Shown piece after piece: positions 2,447 through 47,764 of a DNA stretch of 47,764 bases. Position 1 is the stretch's first letter. Each line of letters starts with the position of its first letter. The DNA is from an uncultured Planctomycetales bacterium (GTDB lineage: Bacteria; Planctomycetota; PLA2; JAEUHO01). The notes below the pieces were generated by a model. It ran no database searches and was not told the origin of the DNA. It saw only the letters and a list, made by a program, of their open reading frames with translations. The position numbers and the translations under genes are program-made. The stretch covers positions 1 to 47,764 of the forward strand of contig CAZPGF010000004.1 in NCBI GenBank assembly GCA_964586025.1, given 5' to 3'.

Positions 2447-3886
2447 CTACCGCGCGCCCTTGCCGGAGAACGCGACGCCCACGGTCTCGAAGAGGATCGA
2501 GAGGTCGAACCAGGGGGAACGGCGCGTCACGTAGTAGAGGTCGTACTCCAACTTGCAGCGCGCGTCCTCGGCCCCGGCCGCGTAGGGCGCGCGAACCTGC
2601 GCCCAACCGGTGATCCCGGGACGAACGATCGTCCGCATCTCGAACAGCGGCACGTCGCGCCGCAGCATCTGGAAAAAGTGCGGGCGCTCCGGGCGTGGCC
2701 CGACGAGCGCCATCTGGCCGACCAGCACGTTGAACAACTGCGGCAGTTCGTCGAGGCGCGTGCGACGCAGGATGCGACCCACGCGCGTGATGCGCGGATC
2801 GTCCTCGGCGGCCCAGACCGGACCGGACTTCGACTCGGCGTCGCGGTACATGCTGCGGAACTTGATGACCGAGAACGTCTTCCCGCGCAGGCCCGTGCGC
2901 TTCTGGAGGAAGAAGATCGGGCGCCCGTCCTCGATCAGGATCGCGATGGCGACCGCCAGCCAGACCGGCAACAGCAGCACGACCAGCACGGCGCTCGCGA
3001 CGACGTCCATCACGCGTGACAGCGCGAAACCGAACCAGTGGCGGGGCCGCCCGAGGAGTAGGTTCAGCGGGTTGGCGAGATCCGTGTCGATGCGTCCTTC
3101 GGCCGCGCGCAGCACGGCCGACTCGCTGCTGATCGAGTGACCGAGGGCGACGAACCGCGCGATCGCAGAACCGACCGCGACGTCGCGCACCGGGCACGAG
3201 ACCACGATGCGCCTCTCGAGGCGGACGGGCTTGCCGGCCGGATCCTCGTCGCCGTACCCGGTGCAGACCGGTCGCTTCAGGAGGCGCTCGGCCGCTTCCG
3301 GATCGCAGTCCGGGATCACGAGGCTCGATACGACGAGGCCCGGGATCACCTCGAGGCGTCGAACCGCCTCGCCCGCCCCCCACTCGGTCGAAGCCAACAA
3401 AGTCACGCGCGCCGGACGATGACGGATCCACCAGGACTGCCACAGGCGGACACCGGGATAGGACAGCCACGACATGAACGCGGCGAGACCCCACGTGCCG
3501 GCGTGGAGGAATCGTCCGGGCAGGATCGCGTCGAGCAGCACGACGAGCAGGGCCGACGCAGTCGGCGCGACCGCACCCATCGCAACGCGCCCGCCCGCGC
3601 CCAGCGCGATCATCCGCAGCGCATAGAGCACCGGGATGTGCAGCGCGACGAGGGTCGCCAGCCGCAGGAACGTGAGCACGCTCGGCTCGGGGATCAGGAG
3701 GGCGTGCAGACCGAGCGTCGCGGCGATCGTCAGGAGATAGACGATGACCGGCGGGATCAGCACCGCTTCCGGCTTCGCCGGGGACAGGGGCCGCTGGATG
3801 CGTCGTGCGACGGGGGTCGGCGCGGAACGCGGCGCGGCCGCGGGAGCGCGGGTGGCGACGGCCGAGGAGGGAGGGGGAGGAGTCAT
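2447..3886 (-). CDS. Priming polyprenyl-phosphate glycosylphosphotransferase (WcaJ/WbaP-like sugar transferase)
   Basis: Bacterial sugar transferase domain: KFRSM, DDPRITRVGRILRRTRLDELPQLFNVL, LVGPRPERP, RPGITGWAQV, LEYDLYY. Confidence 0.95.
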   Translation of the reverse strand: MTPPPPSSAVATRAPAAAPRSAPTPVARRIQRPLSPAKPEAVLIPPVIVYLLTIAATLGLHALLIPEPSVLTFLRLATLVALHIPVLYALRMIALGAGGRVAMGAVAPTASALLVVLLDAILPGRFLHAGTWGLAAFMSWLSYPGVRLWQSWWIRHRPARVTLLASTEWGAGEAVRRLEVIPGLVVSSLVIPDCDPEAAERLLKRPVCTGYGDEDPAGKPVRLERRIVVSCPVRDVAVGSAIARFVALGHSISSESAVLRAAEGRIDTDLANPLNLLLGRPRHWFGFALSRVMDVVASAVLVVLLLPVWLAVAIAILIEDGRPIFFLQKRTGLRGKTFSVIKFRSMYRDAESKSGPVWAAEDDPRITRVGRILRRTRLDELPQLFNVLVGQMALVGPRPERPHFFQMLRRDVPLFEMRTIVRPGITGWAQVRAPYAAGAEDARCKLEYDLYYVTRRSPWFDLSILFETVGVAFSGKGAR

Positions 3887-3895
3887 CGGGTGCGA

Positions 3896-4588
3896 TCAGT
3901 CCCGGGACGGCCGGGCGCCGTTCAGAACGACTCCGATCACGCGCTTGGCGACCTGTGCGAGTGCCTTCTGCAGCGCGCGCTTCGGCGTGCGCCCGCTCTG
4001 CGCGACGACGACGAGTTCCTCGACGCAGTCTCGGAGCACGATGCCCTCCGGGTTGTCGAGGATCGACGGGCAGTCGATCACGATCTGCGCGTAGTTCGGG
4101 CGCAGTTCGTGAAGTGTGTGCGCCCACGCGGCGGGGTCGTGCAGCGTGAACCCGTCCTCGCCGTCCGGTGCCGTCATCAGGTCGACGCCCTCGAACGGCG
4201 TCTCGATCAGGCTCGGATGCGGTCCGGGATGGCCGGCGGCGAGCGTGCGCGTCAGCGTGCGGCTGCGGGCGTCGCCGTCCACGAGCAGCACGCGACCGGC
4301 GCGACCGCGCGTGCGACCGAGACACACGGCGAGGTTCACCGCGGCCGTGGTCTTGCCCTCCCCGTCGCGTGCGCTGACGACGCCGATCGTCCGGAACGCG
4401 CGGCGCTGGCTCTGAAGGAGGATGTGCGCCGTGAGACGCATGTAGCCGCGCGCAGACTCCGGACGCGGCTTCTCGACGGACTCGATGCGGCGGCCCTCGT
4501 GCACCGCCAGCAGCGACCCGGGCTTCGACGCGTCCCGCAGGGCGAGTGCGGACGAACCGGCGGACGAGGACGCGGTCGGGTTCGCCAC
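3896..4588 (-). CDS. Stand-alone BY-kinase-like ATPase, CpsD/CapB family (start GTG 4588 or ATG 4603)
   Basis: Walker A SARDGEGKTT, A' VLLVDGDAR, B IVIDCP, end VIGVVLN; follows the chain-length gene. Confidence 0.85.
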   Translation of the reverse strand: MANPTASSSAGSSALALRDASKPGSLLAVHEGRRIESVEKPRPESARGYMRLTAHILLQSQRRAFRTIGVVSARDGEGKTTAAVNLAVCLGRTRGRAGRVLLVDGDARSRTLTRTLAAGHPGPHPSLIETPFEGVDLMTAPDGEDGFTLHDPAAWAHTLHELRPNYAQIVIDCPSILDNPEGIVLRDCVEELVVVAQSGRTPKRALQKALAQVAKRVIGVVLNGARPSRD

Positions 4589-4590
4589 GA

Positions 4591-6225
4591 TCAGACCCCC
4601 CATCCGAGCAGACGCGCGAGCCACGACGGCGCGTCCATCAGCCCGTAGTGCGCCGCCAGCGCCATGCCGGCGACGCCGAGGCATCCGGCGACCCAGCCGC
4701 CGAACACGACGTCGCGTGCGACACTTCGCATCGGGACGAGCGGCCCCTCCTCGAGGCGCGGCACCTCGACCACGAACGCGCCGGGCAGGACCCCCGCGAT
4801 GTCGCGGGCGTCCACGACCGTCGAGTCGTCGTAGCGGCGCCGCAGCAGCATCAGGCCATAGCCGACGAGCAGCCCCGCCGCGGAGGCCATGACGAGGAAC
4901 TTGCGTCGCGCCGGACCGGTCGGCGACGCCGGCGCCACGGCCGGTTCGACGAGTTGGTACGGCGTCACGAGCGACGGGGGCGCGGACTCGGTGAACCGGC
5001 GCTGCGACTCGAGCTCGATCTCGGCGTTGCGCGCGTTCTTCAACGTCTCGTAGGCGAGGTCGCGCTGTGCCAGGAGGGGCTTGACCTCCTCCTGGAGCAG
5101 CGGCGCGGCGCGCAGCTTCTGGTAGAGATCCCGCTCCTTCGCCTCGGCCGTCGCGAGTTCGTCGCCGATCGCCGCGGCGCGCGACTTCAGCACGACGACG
5201 CGATCCCGGCGCTGCCGCAGGATCTGGTCGCGGTCCGTGCGGACGCGCGCGAGCCAGGCGTCGTCTTCGGCCCGGCGAACGCGCTCGAGTTCCGCGGCGG
5301 TGTCGCGGACGCGTGCCTCCCAGGAGGTCATCTCGTTGCGCGCGCGAATCACACTGCCGTGCATCTCGGTGCGCGTCGCGCGCTTCTCGGTGTAGGCGGC
5401 GCGCGCGCCGGTCAGCGCCTCCTGCTCTCCGCGCAGGCGGTCGGCGAGCAGCTGCTCCTGGGTCGAAGCGGGTCGCGACTTGACGTCCTCGAGGCCCGCC
5501 TCGCCGCGGGTGAGTTCCTCTTCGACGCCCTGCACCTCCGTGAGGACCGCGGAGCGCTCGCGCAGGAGTTCGTCCACGCGACTGCGCACACCATCGAGCT
5601 CGCGCTCGAGACGCGTCATCTCGAGTTCGAGCGTGCCCTTGCCGCTGTGCTTCGCGTGGAACGCCTCGATCTCCGCGCGGAAACCGGCGTACGTCCGTTC
5701 GGCCTCCTCGCGGTGCTTGACGGAGAAGTCGTGCTTCTTCTCGGCCTCGTCGACGTAGGGCTGCTTCTCGTTGTCGAGGAAGCGCTCGATGAGCGCGTTC
5801 AACGCTCGCTCGGCGACGACGCCGTCGGTGTGGGTGGTGCGGACGCTGAACGCGTTGTCACCCAGTCGGTTCCACTCGATACGCTCGGCGTGGCGCTGGA
5901 TCGTCTCGGGATCGTCGAGCGGGGCGGCCGGATCGAACACCTCGACGAACGCACGGACGTTGTCCGACGCGAGCAGGCGGTCCCTCGTCTTGTTGACGAG
6001 CTCGAACGCGTTCTCGTCGCGTGCGCTCGGGCCGACGATGCGCGTCGCGCCGGCGGTCATCTTCTCGTTGATCTGGATCACCGCACCGACGTCGTAGGTG
6101 TTCGGCAGACGGAGCGCGTAGATCGTCGCCGGTAGCAGCAACGTGGCGACCGGGACCGCGTAGGTCCACTTCCACTTGCCGACGACGGCGGCGAGCGCTC
6201 GGAGGGAGGCGCCGAACCACGTCAT
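4591..6225 (-). CDS. Polysaccharide co-polymerase / chain-length determinant (GumC/Wzc N-terminal type)
   Basis: N-terminal TM, long coiled-coil region, YQLVEPAVAPASPTGPARR then a TM; ATG 6225 overlaps the upstream stop (ATGA). Confidence 0.85.
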   Translation of the reverse strand: MTWFGASLRALAAVVGKWKWTYAVPVATLLLPATIYALRLPNTYDVGAVIQINEKMTAGATRIVGPSARDENAFELVNKTRDRLLASDNVRAFVEVFDPAAPLDDPETIQRHAERIEWNRLGDNAFSVRTTHTDGVVAERALNALIERFLDNEKQPYVDEAEKKHDFSVKHREEAERTYAGFRAEIEAFHAKHSGKGTLELEMTRLERELDGVRSRVDELLRERSAVLTEVQGVEEELTRGEAGLEDVKSRPASTQEQLLADRLRGEQEALTGARAAYTEKRATRTEMHGSVIRARNEMTSWEARVRDTAAELERVRRAEDDAWLARVRTDRDQILRQRRDRVVVLKSRAAAIGDELATAEAKERDLYQKLRAAPLLQEEVKPLLAQRDLAYETLKNARNAEIELESQRRFTESAPPSLVTPYQLVEPAVAPASPTGPARRKFLVMASAAGLLVGYGLMLLRRRYDDSTVVDARDIAGVLPGAFVVEVPRLEEGPLVPMRSVARDVVFGGWVAGCLGVAGMALAAHYGLMDAPSWLARLLGWGV

Positions 6226-15254: not shown

Positions 15255-16414
15255 TGCCGCCCGAACCCGCGCCGGTGCGCGTCGTCCACGTGCGGAACAG
15301 CGACCGGGTCAGCGGTCCCGAACGCCTGCTCATCGACCAGGCGCGGCACGCGAGCCCGGCCATCGAGGTCCACGTCGCGGTCTTCGCGCCGCCGGGACGG
15401 CCGTCGGCGTTCCTCGACATGGCCGAACGCGAGGGCGTGCGCGTCCTTCGCATCGAACAGCGCTCCTCGTACGACCCGCGCCTCGTCGGACGCCTGCACG
15501 AGCGGCTCACCGCCGTCGGCGCGGACCTCGTCGTCACGCACGACTACAAGGCGAACTTCGTCGGGCGCCGCGCGGCCCGCCTCGGGGCGATTCCGTGGAT
15601 CGCGGTGGCGCACGGCTACACGGCCGAGGACCTGAAGGTGCGAGTGTTCGAGGCGCTCGATCGCCGCGCGTTGCGTCGTGCCGATGCCGTGGTCGTCGTC
15701 TCGGAGGCGCTGCGCGAGCGACTTCGACGCGGCGGCGTCCCGGAGGACCGCCTCCACGGCGTCGACAACGGGATCGACGTCGCGCGCGTGATCGAGGCGG
15801 CGGAGGCGAGTCGAGACCGAGCGCGTGCCGCGCTCGGCGCGAGCGAGGGGGACGCTCTCGTCGTCGCACTCGGACGCACCAGCCCCGAGAAGGGTCAGGA
15901 CCTGTTGCTGGAGGCCTTTGCGCGACTCGCCGAATCGCGTCCGGCCCTGCGTCTCGCTCTCGTCGGCGACGGCCCCCTGCTCGAAGGACTGGCCCGGCGC
16001 GCGGATGCGGCGGGCCTCCGCGAACGGGTCGCGCTGCCCGGGTGGCGCGACGACGGCCCCGCGTGCCTGGCCGTCGCGGACGTGGTCGTGATGCCGAGTC
16101 GATCCGAGGGGCTGCCGATCGCGTTGCTCGAGGCGCTGGCCGTCGGAACGCCGGTCGTCGTCACCGATGTCGGCGCGATGGCGGACGTCGTCGAGGGCGG
16201 AAGCGCCGGACTGGTCGTGCCGCCGAACGACGTCGCCGCGCTCGCCGACGCGATCGCCGCGACCCTCGACTTCCCTGGTGCCGCACGTGCGCGCGCCGCG
16301 CTCGGTCGTCGCCGCGTCGAGACCCGCTACGGCACGCGCGCCCAGGCGGCGCGCCTCGAGGCCCTCTACCTCTCGGTCGTCGCACGATCCCGCCGCCGGT
16401 ATCCGTTCAGGTGA
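15254..16414 (+). CDS. Glycosyltransferase family 4 (GT-B)
   Basis: TGATG overlap; SGPER, VVTHDYK, VDNGID, LGRTSPEKGQD, VMPSRSEGLPIALLEALAVGTPVVVTDVG. Confidence 0.92.
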   Translation: MPPEPAPVRVVHVRNSDRVSGPERLLIDQARHASPAIEVHVAVFAPPGRPSAFLDMAEREGVRVLRIEQRSSYDPRLVGRLHERLTAVGADLVVTHDYKANFVGRRAARLGAIPWIAVAHGYTAEDLKVRVFEALDRRALRRADAVVVVSEALRERLRRGGVPEDRLHGVDNGIDVARVIEAAEASRDRARAALGASEGDALVVALGRTSPEKGQDLLLEAFARLAESRPALRLALVGDGPLLEGLARRADAAGLRERVALPGWRDDGPACLAVADVVVMPSRSEGLPIALLEALAVGTPVVVTDVGAMADVVEGGSAGLVVPPNDVAALADAIAATLDFPGAARARAALGRRRVETRYGTRAQAARLEALYLSVVARSRRRYPFR

Positions 16415-45000: not shown

Positions 45001-45471
45001 ATGACCCGTCGCACATGGACCGGACGACATCTCGACGTGACCTTCGACGCCGAGGTCTGCATCCACGCGGCCGAGTGCCTGCGGCGCCTGCCGCAGGTCT
45101 TCGACACACGCCGCAGGCCGTGGATCCTGCCGGACGCCGCCTTGCCCGACGCCGTGCGCGAAGCCGTGGCCCACTGCCCGAGCGGCGCCTTGGCGATCGT
45201 CGAGAAGTCCGCGCAGGCGGCGGCGGAAGGCCCGCCGCCCGCGGACGCCCCGGCGACGACGCCGGTCGTCGTCGAGATTCCCGGTCACGGCCCCCTGCGC
45301 GTGCGCGGTGGGCCGGTGCGCGTCGTCGCGGCGGACGGCACGGTGCTGCGCGAGAGCGACCGATTCTCCCTCTGCGGCTGCGGTCGCTCCGCGACCATCC
45401 CCTTCTGCGACGGCACCCACAAGACCCCCGATCCGCGAAGCCGTTCGTTCCCAGGGTCAGAGACCCCCTGA
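45001..45471 (+). CDS. Divergent 4Fe-4S (YjdI-like) domain fused to a CDGSH Fe-S domain
   Basis: CIHAAEC...CPSGAL; LCGCGRSATIPFCDGTH; stop TGA at 45469-45471 lies inside an IS-end motif. Confidence 0.88.
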   Translation: MTRRTWTGRHLDVTFDAEVCIHAAECLRRLPQVFDTRRRPWILPDAALPDAVREAVAHCPSGALAIVEKSAQAAAEGPPPADAPATTPVVVEIPGHGPLRVRGGPVRVVAADGTVLRESDRFSLCGCGRSATIPFCDGTHKTPDPRSRSFPGSETP

Positions 45472-45479
45472 ACGGATAC
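45463..45479 (-). repeat. IS66-type end, right end of a leftward unit
   Basis: Reverse complement GTATCCGTTCAGGGGGT, 16/17 identical to 47710-47726. Confidence 0.75.
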
Positions 45480-45537
45480 GGGAGTTGGTAACCGTTCAGC
45501 CCTAATTCTGGCGGAACTATCAACCGACTGACGGGGT

Positions 45538-47040
45538 ATGGCCAAGCAACGGCTCTCCCTAAAAGAGCGGTTCGAGCAGATCGAGGCGCGTCTGCGCACC
45601 ACCGAGCGGAAACTCGAAGCCTCCGAGCGTCGCAGGTGCCACCTCGAAGCGAACCGCGCTAATCTCACCCGCGAGAACAAGCGCCTGATGCAACACGTCG
45701 AGATCCTCCAGGAGAAGGTGCGTGAACTCACGGCGCGGTTGAACCAGGATTCGTCGAACTCCTCGAAGCCGCCGTCCTCCGACGTGCCCTGGAGGCAACG
45801 CCGCAAGCAGAAGCCCACGGGTCGAAGGTCCGGCGGCCAGCCAGGTCGAGAGGGCAAGACCCGCAAGCCACTACCTCCCGAAGAGGTGGATCGCACGATC
45901 CCGGTCATGCCGGAGCGGTGCGCGGCGTGTCGCTCGACGCTTCGGCCCGAGGACGTGGCCGGGGAACCGTTTCGTCATCAGGTCATCGAGATTTCTCCCG
46001 TCGTTGCCGAGGTCGTGGAGTACGTCCTGCACGCGCTCAAGTGTAGCCGCTGCGGCACGATCACGACGGCCGACCTGCCCGACGGCGTGCCCACGGGCTG
46101 CGTCGGCCCCCGGCTCCAGGCGATCCTCGCCCTCTTCACCGGACGCTGCCACCTGTCGCGCCGCTAGGCCGGTGACCTGGCGGTGGCGCTCTTCGGCGAG
46201 AAGGCGGAGGTGTCGCTCGGTACGATCGCCAACCTGGAGCAGCGCACGAGCGAGGCCCTCAAGCCCGCCTACGACGAGGCGCTGTACGCCATCCAGAACG
46301 CCGAGATCGTCCACTGCGACGAGACCGGATGGCGTGAGAACAACAGGAAGGCGTGGCTCTGGGGCGCGGTCACGCCGATGCTCAAAGTGTTCCGCATCGA
46401 CCCACGGCGCAACCGGGAGGCGTTCCGCAAACTGCTCTTCACCTTCGTGGGCTACCTCATCACGGACAGGTTTTCCGTGTACCGCATTCACGATCTGAAG
46501 AAACGTCAACCCTGCTGGGCGCACCTGCTCCGGAACTTTCTGGGACTGGAGGAACGAGGAGGCAGGGCTCGAGGTCTCGGGGTCACGGGGCAGAGGATCG
46601 TGAAGGCCGTGTTCCGCGAATGGTATCGCTTCCGAGAAGGCGAGATCACGCGGCGGGTCCTTCGGCGCAGGTTGAAACCGGTCCGCAAGCGGCTCGAACG
46701 GCTGCTGCGTCTTCACGTCAGCAACCCCGTTCCCGCCGCCCGCAAGATCGCGAAGGACCTGCTGGAGTACGGCGAGGCGCTGTGGACGTTCGCCCGGGTC
46801 GAGGGCGTCGAGCCCACGAACAACGCAGCTGAGCGTGCGGTGCGGAAGGGCGTGCTCTGGCGCAAGGGATCGTTCGGCTCGCAGAGCGCTGCGGGCTCCC
46901 GCTTCGCCGAGCGGATGCTCGCGGTCAGCGAGAGCCTGCGAGCGCAGGGGCGGTCGATCCTGGAGTTCCTTGTTGCCGCGATTCACTCGAAGGCATCCGG
47001 CCACTACCCGCCGTCGCTGTTGCCTGCCGACTCTGCTTGA
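45538..47040 (+). pseudogene. tnpC: IS66 transposase TnpC with an in-frame TAG at 46165-46167
   Basis: Coiled coil, DSSNSSKPPSSD, Zn ribbon CAAC/CSRC, HCDETGW, ITDR, CWAHLLR, EPTNNAAERAVR; both track ORFs share one frame. Confidence 0.9.
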
Positions 47041-47055
47041 GAGCGAGAGCCCCAT

Positions 47056-47340
47056 CTAACAGCGCTGGCGGTTCCACGCCTCTCCAACCGTCGCTCGCGT
47101 AGCGCACCACCCCAGCGGCAGATCCGCTAGAGATCCGATCGACGAGTCCAGTTCGAGAATCGTCTGGAGTCCGACGACACGCGCATCAAGCTCTTGCCCA
47201 GGGGCGCCGTTCCGGCTGTGGAACTGCCAAGCGCCGTCGTCGGCATCGTGTGATACGTAGACAATCGGCAATCCGCGATCGACGATGTCTGCGCTCGTCA
47301 GCACGGCGACGTTCGGGGGATCGACGAAGGGCCAGTTCAC
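47056..47340 (-). CDS. Candidate immunity protein (Imm33/DUF2185-like)
   Basis: YVSHDADDGAWQF...LADLPLGWCA; GTG start overlaps the toxin stop (GTGA) with GGAG upstream. Confidence 0.65.
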   Translation of the reverse strand: MNWPFVDPPNVAVLTSADIVDRGLPIVYVSHDADDGAWQFHSRNGAPGQELDARVVGLQTILELDSSIGSLADLPLGWCATRATVGEAWNRQRC

Positions 47341-47699
47341 TTCGGCTCTCCAGATGGAGGAGTGGTAGGAGTAGAGTCCGGCGGAAGTTCGGGCATCTTA
47401 TCACCCTTGGCGAGGTTCCCAGCACGGGAACGCACTTCGGCGTTACTGAAGCTGTTCTCGCCGCCCTTGGACTTCGGAACGACGTGGTCAACGTGCGCCT
47501 CATTGTCAGGCGGCCGCCCACCCTTCTCATGCCTCTGCGGCCGGACGAGCGCCTCCCCAGTCCTGTCGTCGCGGATCACGCCGCCGTTGCGCGCTTCGTT
47601 CTCCGCGAGGATTCTCCGCTTCTGAGCTTGCGTGAAGTCCTTCTTCGGTCCGACGGACGGATGATCTTCGAGATGCGAGTACGGCCCCTCTGAACGCTT
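47337..47699 (-). pseudogene. Orphan polymorphic-toxin C-terminal HNH nuclease (Rhs-type tip), 5'-truncated
   Basis: Manual translation KRSEGPYSHLEDHPSVGPKKDFTQAQKRRILAENEARNGGVIRDD...HVDHVVPKSKGGENSFSNAEVRSRAGNLAKGDK; the frame closes upstream at TGA 47718-47720 with no ATG. Confidence 0.75.
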
Positions 47700-47709
47700 A
47701 CCAGGCGTT

Positions 47710-47726
47710 GTAACCGTTCAGGGGGT
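47710..47726 (+). repeat. IS66-type left end of a further unit running off the window
   Basis: GTAACCGTTCAGGGGGT, starting 8 bp after the right end at 47701. Confidence 0.75.
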
Positions 47727-47764
47727 AAAGGCCGCGCCGAGGCATGCCGACCTATCGTCATGTG

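Follow-up and report, generated by a model that had tools for sequence, protein, structure and literature searches.

IS66 elements of Planctomycetota that carry toxin tips read through their right terminal repeat may exchange these tips by transposition

Introduction

In the current view, polymorphic toxin loci such as Rhs and CDI acquire new C-terminal tips through homologous recombination with orphan cassettes. In the window, that is, the whole 47.8-kb stretch of DNA (47,764 nucleotides) from an uncultured Planctomycetales bacterium that was analysed here, an HNH toxin tip and a putative immunity gene lie within an IS66-family insertion sequence whose right end is also read as toxin codons. 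An initial annotation explained this arrangement by a capture event at a cryptic end-like 12-mer within an rhs gene, and considered the product to be a mobile immunity cassette. How did a tip without a start codon come to be read from the end of a transposon, and what might such an element do with it?

Results

The element spans positions 45488–47701 and consists of a 12-bp left terminal repeat (IRL), the transposase gene tnpC, an immunity gene and a toxin tip on the minus strand, and the right terminal repeat (IRR). The IRL, GTAACCGTTCAG (45488–45499, plus strand), is the 12-mer with which related elements begin, and the IRR, CTGAACGCTTAC (47690–47701, minus strand; reverse complement GTAAGCGTTCAG), is its reverse complement at 11 of 12 positions. 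Both borders are junctions in which an IRR-like 12-mer, 8 bp and an IRL-like 12-mer follow one another (45468–45499 and 47690–47721). On the left stands a solo IRR-like 12-mer, CTGAACGGATAC (45468–45479), which differs from the reverse-complemented IRL at one position and overlaps with the stop codon of a Fer4_19/CDGSH gene (45001–45471). It is probably a relic left by an earlier member of the array; when it is read in the toxin frame, a stop follows after seven codons. The spacer GGGAGTTG (45480–45487) separates this relic from the IRL. On the right, the spacer CAGGCGTT (47702–47709) is followed by another IS66-family element of the array, of which the window contains the IRL and 43 further bp (47710–47764, plus strand) before it ends; the match to the related locus L007 reaches 47754. 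The window copy lacks a target-site duplication, because GGGAGTTG and CAGGCGTT differ. When two mismatches were allowed, the 12-mer was found nine times in the window against 1.47 expected, and none of 100 shuffled sequences reached nine; apart from the four copies at IS ends, a single further copy had one mismatch. As the initial annotation had stated, no IS end follows the tnpC stop codon (47038–47040), and the scan of the window found no IR-like 12-mer near 47050–47100.

The paired 12-mers were also considered as a REP-like hairpin repeat targeted by the IS; this was rejected because the window has just that one 1-mismatch copy away from the IS ends and because the 12-mer forms the IS end in every relative. 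A hairpin loop as the site of insertion would call for equal 8-bp loops and was rejected, as these were unequal; a tandem dimer of one IS was discarded because the adjoining elements differ in both tnpC (76–88% identity) and cargo.

The transposase gene (45538–47040, plus strand) matched DDE_Tnp_IS66 (PF03050, E = 9.4e-36), zf-IS66 (PF13005, E = 2.4e-6) and DUF6444 in Pfam, with both halves in one frame, and is the sole transposition gene of the element. Only 38 bp lie between the IRL and the start of tnpC, which leaves no room for the tnpA and tnpB genes of the three-gene IS66 type; the element therefore belongs to the tnpC-only group. Its terminal repeats start with GTAA(G/C)CG, as in that group, and the same 12-mer terminates most of the approximately 80 relatives whose ends were found. 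GTAAGCGTTCAG is the normal terminal repeat across the tnpC-only group, including relatives at 38–47% identity, which carry no cargo because their IRR, where found, sits −3 to +74 bp from the tnpC stop. An in-frame TAG (46165–46167, plus strand) interrupts tnpC of the window copy and replaces the Glu codon (GAG or GAA) of 11 aligned relatives. A programmed stop was rejected, as the TAG is not conserved. Duplications of 8 bp and GTAA ends are typical of the IS66 family in the ISfinder descriptions, and the sister elements L008, L010, L011, L016 and L020 do have 8-bp target-site duplications, so the window copy has probably been rearranged.

The toxin tip (47337–47717, minus strand) was delimited by its reading frame, by Pfam and by a profile search. 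The frame is open for 126 codons from 47717 down to 47340 and matched HNH_4, HNH and HNH_5 (E-values from 4.5e-5 to 1.2e-4), the first two above the Pfam cut-offs (HNH_4, 23.8 bits against a cut-off of 22). Reading frames and Pfam thus agreed with the earlier description of a minus-strand HNH C-terminus and a GTGA-coupled 94-aa gene ahead of the right end. The tip also lacks a start codon, as had been claimed: the first in-frame start, a GTG at 47579, falls inside the conserved domain, and upstream the frame is shut by a TGA (47718–47720) because the reverse complement of the next element's IRL supplies it. The end sequence is read in the toxin frame as previously noted, GGT AAG CGT TCA GAG or G-K-R-S-E, and the conserved domain begins directly behind these IRR codons with G-PYSHLEDHPSV. 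A beta-beta-alpha-Me nuclease core, DH...N...N...N..K, is present (VDHVVPKSKGGENSFSNAEVRSRAGNLAKGDK); D77, H78 and N88 are the same throughout the alignment, and N92, N101 and K104 almost throughout. From this motif, the tip may be called Tox-DHNNK-like. A sequence search of the PDB with the tip gave weak matches to Cas9 HNH domains, confined to the HNH core.

The profile search with the HNH domain found 2038 representative proteins. Among the matches listed, which were proteins of up to 2313 aa, the domain was at or near the C-terminus in all 150, and RHS repeats were present in four of the six longest proteins tested, one of which also had TcdB/SpvB domains. By sequence criteria, the tip is a genuine C-terminal domain of a polymorphic toxin. 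Among the listed relatives with a located domain start, those outside an IS had varied linkers in front of the domain, and in none of them was it preceded by G-[KT]-R-S. One relative, L006, is an Rhs-type orphan with ..PINNTDPLGL in front of the domain; the corresponding Rhs-type core segment (PxxxxDPxGL) is absent before the window tip, which is preceded by the IRR codons alone. Nor is this the layout of a type II toxin–antitoxin module, as there is no start codon before the domain and the families are those of secreted polymorphic toxins.

The 94-aa partner gene (47056–47340, minus strand) was identified from ORF calls and homologues. Its start codon, a GTG, and the TGA that ends the toxin frame lie together in a 4-bp overlap (GTGA, 47337–47340), and GGAGAG is located 5 nt upstream of the GTG. 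The gene adjoins the HNH tip in every one of L001–L004, L006 and L007. The window protein itself had no Pfam match at E ≤ 0.1 and no sequence match in the PDB, and its exact sequence was not on record in an exact-sequence look-up; homologues at 49–67% identity had a precomputed match to PF09951 or the UniRef name DUF2185. The gene thus appears to be Imm33/DUF2185-like and is a putative immunity gene. DUF2185 is Imm33, an immunity family paired with Tox-HNH and Tox-DHNNK, and HNH with Imm33 is a listed toxin–immunity combination (PMC3482391). The immunity gene of the window copy may be expressed.

Two close copies of the unit, L004 from an ENA metagenome and L007 from a Planctomycetota MAG, are 98.6–98.7% identical to the window from the end of tnpC through the immunity gene, the HNH tip and the IRR. 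Identity collapses at the outer edge of the IRR, and the 8-bp flank is only 37.5% identical (right-hand spacer GGGGACTT in L004, CGTCTGTC in L007 and CAGGCGTT in the window). The unit moves together with its cargo, because L004 and L007 share the cargo, differ in the 8-bp flank and diverge exactly at the IRR. This bears out the earlier claim that the HNH tip and the immunity gene are inside the IS and that its right end lies in the toxin frame. The initial annotation had said that a normal right end shortly after tnpC in all copies of the IS would speak against it; in no copy of the toxin-carrying lineage was such an end found. Across the lineage, a cassette of approximately 650–980 bp lies on the opposite strand between tnpC and the IRR, and the IRR doubles as the first codons of the tip, G/S-[K/T]-R-S.

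The HNH tip is one of 14 mutually unrelated tips (by BLASTP) that occupy the same place, strand and frame in related Planctomycetota elements. All 14 are read inward through the IRR, with the frame open for at least 100 codons from it. Their Pfam families comprise HNH_4, Endonuclea_NS_2 (E = 3e-24), WHH/Colicin-DNase (E = 7.5e-17), TNT (E = 5e-22), Colicin_D (E = 1.6e-18), NTP_transf_2 (NTase) and DUF6883; a YezG-like gene accompanies the Endonuclea_NS_2 tip and a DUF4926 gene the DUF6883 tip. Decayed copies with a nonsense mutation, a truncation or an internal deletion of tnpC are common. The upstream genes in L001 and L004–L006 gave no informative Pfam matches. Similar structures were found in two MAGs and in JGI contigs; two MAGs, together with short contigs from metagenomes, supply almost all of the evidence.

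Perfect 8-bp duplications enclose the IRL, tnpC, the cargo and the IRR in L008, L010, L011, L016 and L020. An IRR-like 12-mer directly borders the insertion site of L008, L010, L011 and L020, and at L016 just a degenerate IRR relic is visible. At the loci examined, the spacing between IRR and IRL was exactly 8 bp in 14 of 14 junctions. Neighbouring elements of an array differ from each other: their tnpC genes are 76–95% identical and their cargo is unrelated. Within the arrays, the reverse complement of the neighbouring IRL places a TGA in the toxin frame (P*TVT). Judged from these junctions, the elements insert 8 bp beyond a resident IRR and build head-to-tail arrays, and it may be the transposase itself that recognizes the resident repeats as targets.

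At two loci the tip is joined in frame to a large ORF. In L010/L099, an NTase tip continues (..DDSG-SKRS..) from the 1266-aa ORF P0011, with the junction sequence ..DDSGSKRSAYGR.., and the duplication TACCACTG occurs three times. Behind P0011 follow a TNT tip with an 85-aa gene and then another tip, which is accompanied by an Imm26 gene. L020 has a Colicin_D tip that continues the frame of an ORF at least 868 aa long; IRR relics stand in frame at the junction, and beyond a relic IRR there is an older tip, followed by a small ORF. At both loci the newest element is the fused one and the older tip–immunity pairs stand behind it. Of approximately six array heads, only two continue a long ORF; many insertions thus produce no fusion, since the heads in L008, L011, L012 and L016 meet a stop codon 5–39 codons upstream. 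In-frame IRR relics were found in the putative delivery genes of L020 and L012.

We assume that the large ORFs encode secreted delivery proteins. High-GC DNA yields long spurious ORFs; P0011 is a called NCBI gene. Neither large ORF had a delivery domain in Pfam, and BLASTP between the two found only a short Cys motif in common (E = 0.003). When the 1065-aa delivery part of the L010 ORF was the query of a homology search, nothing except the query itself came back; low-complexity words had probably swamped other candidates.

Discussion

We consider it probable, on balance, that a lineage of tnpC-only IS66 elements swaps polymorphic-toxin tips by transposition with an in-frame cassette, and that the window copy is a displaced, dead member of it. 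A newcomer would enter next to a resident copy in head-to-tail orientation, exactly 8 bp beyond that copy's IRR. If the resident copy lies at the 3′ terminus of a gene for a large secreted toxin, the tip of the newcomer would be fused in frame, since the 8 bp, now duplicated, and the IRR read as they did before. The old tip and its immunity gene would be displaced downstream, and the TGA from the newcomer's IRL would silence the displaced tip. The arrays would then be a record of successive tip swaps by transposition instead of homologous recombination, with orphans that retain their immunity genes. Such an element would be a natural translational-fusion transposon whose IRR is a coding linker and which homes to the 8 bp beside the right end of a copy that already resides at the 3′ terminus of a gene for a large secreted toxin, so that each transposition swaps the tip in frame and shelves the old tip and immunity gene as an orphan; we give this more specific reading about an even chance. 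The fusion and replacement of tips would be its selected function. The window copy is, as far as its sequence can tell, a dead and displaced array member, because a codon of tnpC has changed from GAG to TAG, the tip is closed by the next IRL and the 8-bp flanks do not match. Activity is not evident from this copy, because it has a broken transposase and no target-site duplication. We read the unmatched flanks as later recombination between copies. At most, the Imm33-type immunity gene would be the only part of the window copy still useful to the cell.

The initial annotation's mobile immunity cassette describes part of this, since the immunity gene does ride in the IS. It is incomplete, because a start-less tip fused to the terminal repeat and two in-frame fusions to large ORFs indicate tip delivery besides immunity. 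The proposed origin fares less well. In its fuller form, a cargo-less IS66 element downstream of an rhs toxin–immunity pair would on one occasion have taken an IRR-like 12-mer that happened to lie within the rhs gene for its own end, by one-ended or alternative-end transposition, and would now spread the module chiefly as a mobile immunity cassette. The position of the cargo between tnpC and the IRR, the existence of cargo-less relatives, the RHS proteins that elsewhere bear the same HNH domain, the Rhs-type orphan L006 with its ..PINNTDPLGL, and the intact immunity gene beside a tip without a start codon would all fit. However, a single accidental capture is not supported by the 12-mer, which is the canonical repeat of the family, not a chance match, and precedes 14 unrelated tips that share junction and frame. 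The non-IS relatives with a located domain start have varied linkers and no G-[KT]-R-S, and capture leaves the constant 8-bp IRR/IRL junctions and the in-frame fusions unexplained. We regard this origin as unlikely. The in-frame IRR relics of L020 and L012 could serve as surrogate ends, and because delivery genes hold such relics, capture through a relic end may have been a route by which tips entered the cassette.

It is somewhat more doubtful that the cargo is a selfish hitch-hiker that delivers no tip, with the IS retained through the immunity gene or an addiction effect, the arrays arising only from the targeting of ends and both fusions being incidental. Most array heads are not joined to long ORFs, many copies are decayed, and the immunity genes are intact, each with its own start codon, as this would predict. 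A start-less toxin would then be useless baggage, yet 14 of 14 tips are open for at least 100 codons in one frame. Moreover, the start of the cargo coincides exactly with the boundary of the toxin domain, both fusions (to the ORFs of at least 868 and of 1266 aa) are correct in orientation and frame with displaced tips behind them, and the toxin families are typical of secreted polymorphic toxins, not of type II modules. Transposase genes are frequent near polymorphic-toxin loci (bioRxiv 10.1101/2025.10.01.679605), and the toxin–immunity pairs might thus be ordinary chromosomal orphan cassettes between which IS copies merely inserted. This is very improbable, as the 8-bp duplications enclose the cargo, identity breaks at the IRR and not behind tnpC, and no copy of the lineage has a terminal repeat just past tnpC. 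A chimeric contig joined at a repeat would account for a window that terminates inside a repeated IS and for the two unmatched 8-bp flanks, but it is scarcely credible when three independent assemblies (the window, L004 and L007) share the internal structure and analogous structures occur in two MAGs and in JGI contigs.

Tip exchange by transposition, as we favour it, can be set against several known systems. The lineage resembles the ISBst12-like, tnpC-only IS66 elements in its DDE_Tnp_IS66 and zf-IS66 domains, GTAA(G/C)CG ends and 8-bp duplications. Ordinary members of that group end approximately 75 bp or less from the tnpC stop; in contrast, the toxin-carrying lineage has an opposite-strand tip and immunity cassette and a coding IRR, and it inserts beside resident IRRs to give head-to-tail arrays. 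In IS30 and IS21, resident ends are preferred targets and abutted (IS)2 junctions are formed with a spacer of the duplication length. The IRR–IRL junctions described here are likewise abutted, with a spacer equal to the duplication, but the junction in IS30 and IS21 joins identical copies and is a reactive intermediate, whereas the IS66 arrays join different elements through stable junctions. TnphoA, Tn5-lacZ and Mud II lac carry a start-less reporter or effector at one transposon end, with a frame through the terminal repeat. As in our reading, insertion in the right orientation and frame gives a hybrid protein; these are, however, laboratory constructs with random insertion, while the IS66 lineage is natural and has an apparent frame-preserving homing rule.

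Downstream of rhs and cdiA genes, orphan Rhs-CT/CdiA-CT modules with immunity genes are known (Poole et al. 2011, PMC3150448; Zhang et al. 2012, PMC3482391). The IS66 cassettes are similar in that start-less C-terminal toxins, each with an immunity gene, line up after a large toxin gene and constitute a store of tips and immunity. The known orphans keep a stretch of conserved core (e.g. PxxxxDPxGL, as in L006) and are thought to be swapped by homologous recombination; in the IS66 cassettes, the junction is a 12-bp transposon end with an 8-bp duplication and each module has its own transposase gene. Among Vibrio cholerae T6SS effector–immunity pairs, sequential displacement leaves arrays of orphan immunity genes and has been attributed to recombination (PMC5361080). 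There too a new effector module supplants the old one and the old immunity gene stays downstream, but no transposon end lies within the effector frame. Full-text searches of the literature turned up no account of an IS66 element that carries toxin cargo in frame, only general remarks on transposases near toxin loci (bioRxiv 10.1101/2025.10.01.679605).

An IS66-type transposase may thus target resident ends. We know of no description of resident ends as targets for this type of transposase, whose family is poorly understood. The insertion rule of 8 bp beyond a resident end would preserve the toxin frame each time. If the proposed explanation is true, it would mean that polymorphic toxins can also diversify by transposition, as an alternative to the recombination model, and it would offer a mechanism for both the horizontal spread and the in-frame installation of toxin tips. 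It would also explain arrays of orphan tips interleaved with transposase remnants, and the lineage would be a natural counterpart to the laboratory fusion transposons.

Anatomy of the element and its toxin–immunity pair

The IS66-family element at 45488–47701 (2214 bp) is bounded by an 11/12 inverted repeat, with the left end (IRL) GTAACCGTTCAG at 45488–45499 and the right end (IRR) CTGAACGCTTAC at 47690–47701. Its plus-strand tnpC gene (45538–47040) matched the Pfam families DUF6444, zf-IS66 and DDE_Tnp_IS66 (9.4e-36). Neither tnpA nor tnpB was present in the element, which is therefore a tnpC-only member of the IS66 family. No end-like sequence was found 3′ of the tnpC stop. On the minus strand lie a gene for a 94-aa immunity protein (47056–47340), whose GTG start overlaps the TGA of the upstream toxin frame, and the toxin frame itself (47717–47340), which is open for 126 codons and matched HNH_4, HNH and HNH_5. 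The earliest in-frame start is a GTG at 47579, within the conserved domain, and a TGA at 47718–47720 closes the frame on the upstream side. IRR is read in the toxin frame as GGT AAG CGT TCA GAG (G-K-R-S-E), and the start of the conserved toxin domain, G-PYSHLEDHPSV, directly abuts these residues. Everything that the initial annotation had stated about the sequence was correct.

Comparison with homologues indicated that the toxin–immunity pair is genuine. The start-less C-terminal toxin domain, or tip, holds the motif DH..N..N..N..K, which characterises HNH toxins of the Tox-DHNNK group (PMC3482391). A profile search with the tip matched 2038 representative proteins; the domain was at or near the C-terminus in all 150 matches listed, and protein lengths ranged from 119 to 2313 aa. 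RHS repeats were found in four of the six longest proteins tested, one of which also had TcdB/SpvB domains. In the comparison locus L006, the residues in frame ahead of a relative of the tip are ..PINNTDPLGL, with which an Rhs core ends; this relative belongs to an orphan array and adjoins an Imm30 gene. The 94-aa protein had 337 homologues, several with PF09951 (DUF2185) or bearing that name, and DUF2185 is Imm33, an immunity family listed for Tox-HNH and Tox-DHNNK (PMC3482391). The tip and immunity genes were neighbours in all loci holding them.

The cargo belongs to the transposon

The cargo, meaning the tip with its immunity gene, is part of the transposon. The tnpC end, immunity gene, tip and IRR of the window recurred in two independent assemblies, an ENA metagenome (L004) and a Planctomycetota MAG (CAVYXV01; L007). 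When window 45653–47701 was compared with L007 3471–5519, the identity rose from 83% in the 5′ part of tnpC to 95% in its 3′ part and 98.6% in both the immunity gene and the tip, then fell to 37.5% over the 8 bp immediately beyond IRR. Against L004, the differences past IRR were confined to those 8 bp. The three copies are thus flanked by three unlike 8-mers (CAGGCGTT, GGGGACTT and CGTCTGTC), and therefore the transposing unit stops exactly at IRR. Sister elements in L008, L010, L011, L016 and L020 had perfect 8-bp duplications around IRL, tnpC, cargo and IRR.

In a scan for relatives that took a single genome from each species, two Planctomycetota MAGs yielded many related copies (TnpC identity 72–95%). 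In every related copy with a visible right end, the gap between tnpC and IRR was about 650–850 bp and carried a start-less ORF and, behind it, a small gene, both on the strand opposite to tnpC; in L020, from the metagenome scan, the gap was about 950 bp. The 14 tips had no BLASTP similarity to one another, and Pfam placed seven of them in families: HNH_4 (window), Endonuclea_NS_2 (YezG-like partner), WHH/Colicin-DNase (frameshifted SUKH-like partner, the SUKH call being by motif only), NTP_transf_2, DUF6883 (DUF4926 partner), TNT and Colicin_D. All 14 tips read IRR in one common frame, giving G/S/R-[K/T]-R-S. Of the three frames through GTAAGCGTTCAG, one is interrupted by TAA, and we estimate the probability that 14 unrelated tips would by chance share the same frame among those left at roughly 1e-4. 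These comparisons indicate that the cargo layout is a design of the lineage and not an accident.

The initial annotation had proposed that the IS captured the module through a cryptic end-like 12-mer in an rhs gene. In distant relatives from metagenomes (38–47% identity) with an identifiable IRR, this end was located between −3 and +74 bp relative to the tnpC stop, with no cargo, and these relatives share the terminal 12-mer with the window lineage. This makes the 12-mer the ancestral end of IS66 type rather than a cryptic rhs site that the IS had borrowed. G-[KT]-R-S was absent before the domain in non-IS relatives of the HNH tip with a locatable domain start, where the linkers varied. A 51%-identity relative (L022, 1214–1637) had 413 bp between tnpC and IRR with a 115-aa ORF on the strand of tnpC, a different type of passenger.

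Insertion sites and arrays

Head-to-tail arrays of such elements were found in the comparison loci, where the junction between elements was IRR, exactly 8 bp and IRL in 14 of 14 cases, a few of these being one site seen in overlapping loci. Where duplications were intact, one 8-mer recurred across the junctions: L008 has two copies of TTCGGACG, L011 two of CTGCGCGC and L010 three of TACCACTG, while the 8-mer is CATCCCTT in L009 and TTCCGCCC in L020. Such recurrence would arise if each newcomer cut 8 bp directly outside the resident IRR, and we infer that resident ends may serve the transposase as targets. IS30 is known to use resident ends as targets. Within an array, the neighbouring IRL, in reverse complement C-TGA-ACG-GTT-AC, puts a stop in the displaced element's toxin frame (P*TVT).

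The mosaic identity between the window and L007 suggests that IS copies recombined or that cassettes were exchanged. Together with the internal tnpC deletions that recur among other members of arrays, it indicates that copies recombine and decay. Large deletions of this kind, with IRL, cargo and IRR kept, were seen at 769–1007 in L004 (reverse complement) and at 2848–3723 and 3732–5654 in L010; these members look like MITE-like toxin cassettes. Tandem in-frame IRR relics in L020 (3055–3112, GKSS-GNRS-..GSTSS) and L012 (4784–4822, GNRSGGKTRGKRS) resemble scars left by several rounds of insertion and loss at a single site. An unusual junction was seen in L019 (483–506), where two GTAACCGTTCAG 12-mers abut directly beside an AHH-like tip (by motif only).

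The window copy is a fossil

The window copy itself is a fossil. An in-frame TAG interrupts tnpC at 46165–46167, where a Glu codon, GAG or GAA, stands in all 11 of the related copies aligned. This ruled out a programmed stop; the TAG is therefore a nonsense mutation and the transposase a pseudogene. The left and right 8-bp flanks are unequal. The left flank has just a solo IRR-like 12-mer, CTGAACGGATAC (45468–45479), overlapping the stop of a Fer4_19/zf-CDGSH gene (45001–45471), and relic transposon DNA may supply the last codons of that gene. On the right, the IRL of the next element (47710–47764) closes the tip upstream and matches the one beside the MAG copy (L007 5528–5572). The window stops 43 bp into the left end of that next IS66-family element, and the contig probably broke at the repeat it forms. 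The copy retains an intact immunity gene, which shares 99% identity with its L004 counterpart and has GGAGAG 5 nt upstream of the GTG. The remaining function of this copy is most likely protection against HNH toxins of this type. Elsewhere in the window, a lone GTATCCGTTCAG (16399–16410, one mismatch to IRL) is located at the extreme 3′ end of a plus-strand ORF, directly before its TGA, and could be an end relic or a chance match.

In-frame fusions and proposed tip swapping

In L010 and L099 (Planctomycetota Bin_16R), the NTase tip of the newest element is in frame with a 1266-aa ORF, and the fusion runs across IRR and the duplicated 8 bp (..ADGADD-SG-SKRS-AYG..). The NCBI annotation has this ORF as a single hypothetical protein, here P0011 (L099 6415–10215). 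On its 3′ side come the tip's partner gene of 120 aa, a truncated tnpC, a TNT tip paired with an 85-aa gene, and another tip beside an Imm26 gene. In L020, an ORF of at least 868 aa (2751–5354) that runs off the contig carries a Colicin_D tip in frame, and three in-frame IRR relics (GKSS-GNRS-..-GSTSS) lie at the junction. An older tip of 92 codons sits behind a relic IRR and precedes a small ORF that is presumably the corresponding immunity gene. Four other array heads had no fusion.

IS66 elements, HNH–Imm33 pairs and orphan toxin arrays are already known. Full-text literature searches found no published description of an IS terminal repeat serving as the first codons of a start-less toxin domain, of a lineage of such elements with interchangeable tips, of insertion at a constant distance of 8 bp from resident ends, or of in-frame fusion of such elements to large genes; the nearest published statements place transposases, including IS66, near some toxin loci and go no further. 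The nearest functional analogue is TnphoA, a laboratory fusion transposon.

With IRR and the duplicated 8 bp unchanged from round to round, every further insertion at the same site preserves the frame. Transposition would then swap the toxic tip of a large toxin gene and leave the earlier tip and its immunity gene behind as an orphan, a scenario to which we give roughly an even chance. The unfused heads of four other arrays weaken this scenario, as do the two large ORFs: P0011 and the large ORF of L020 share only a Cys motif, C.C.P..C..C.SC.WK, and neither had a Pfam domain or a recognisable delivery domain. Both have an N-terminus apparently rich in charged residues and Gly/Pro-rich linkers ahead of the tip, and they may represent an undescribed toxin-delivery protein of the Planctomycetota.
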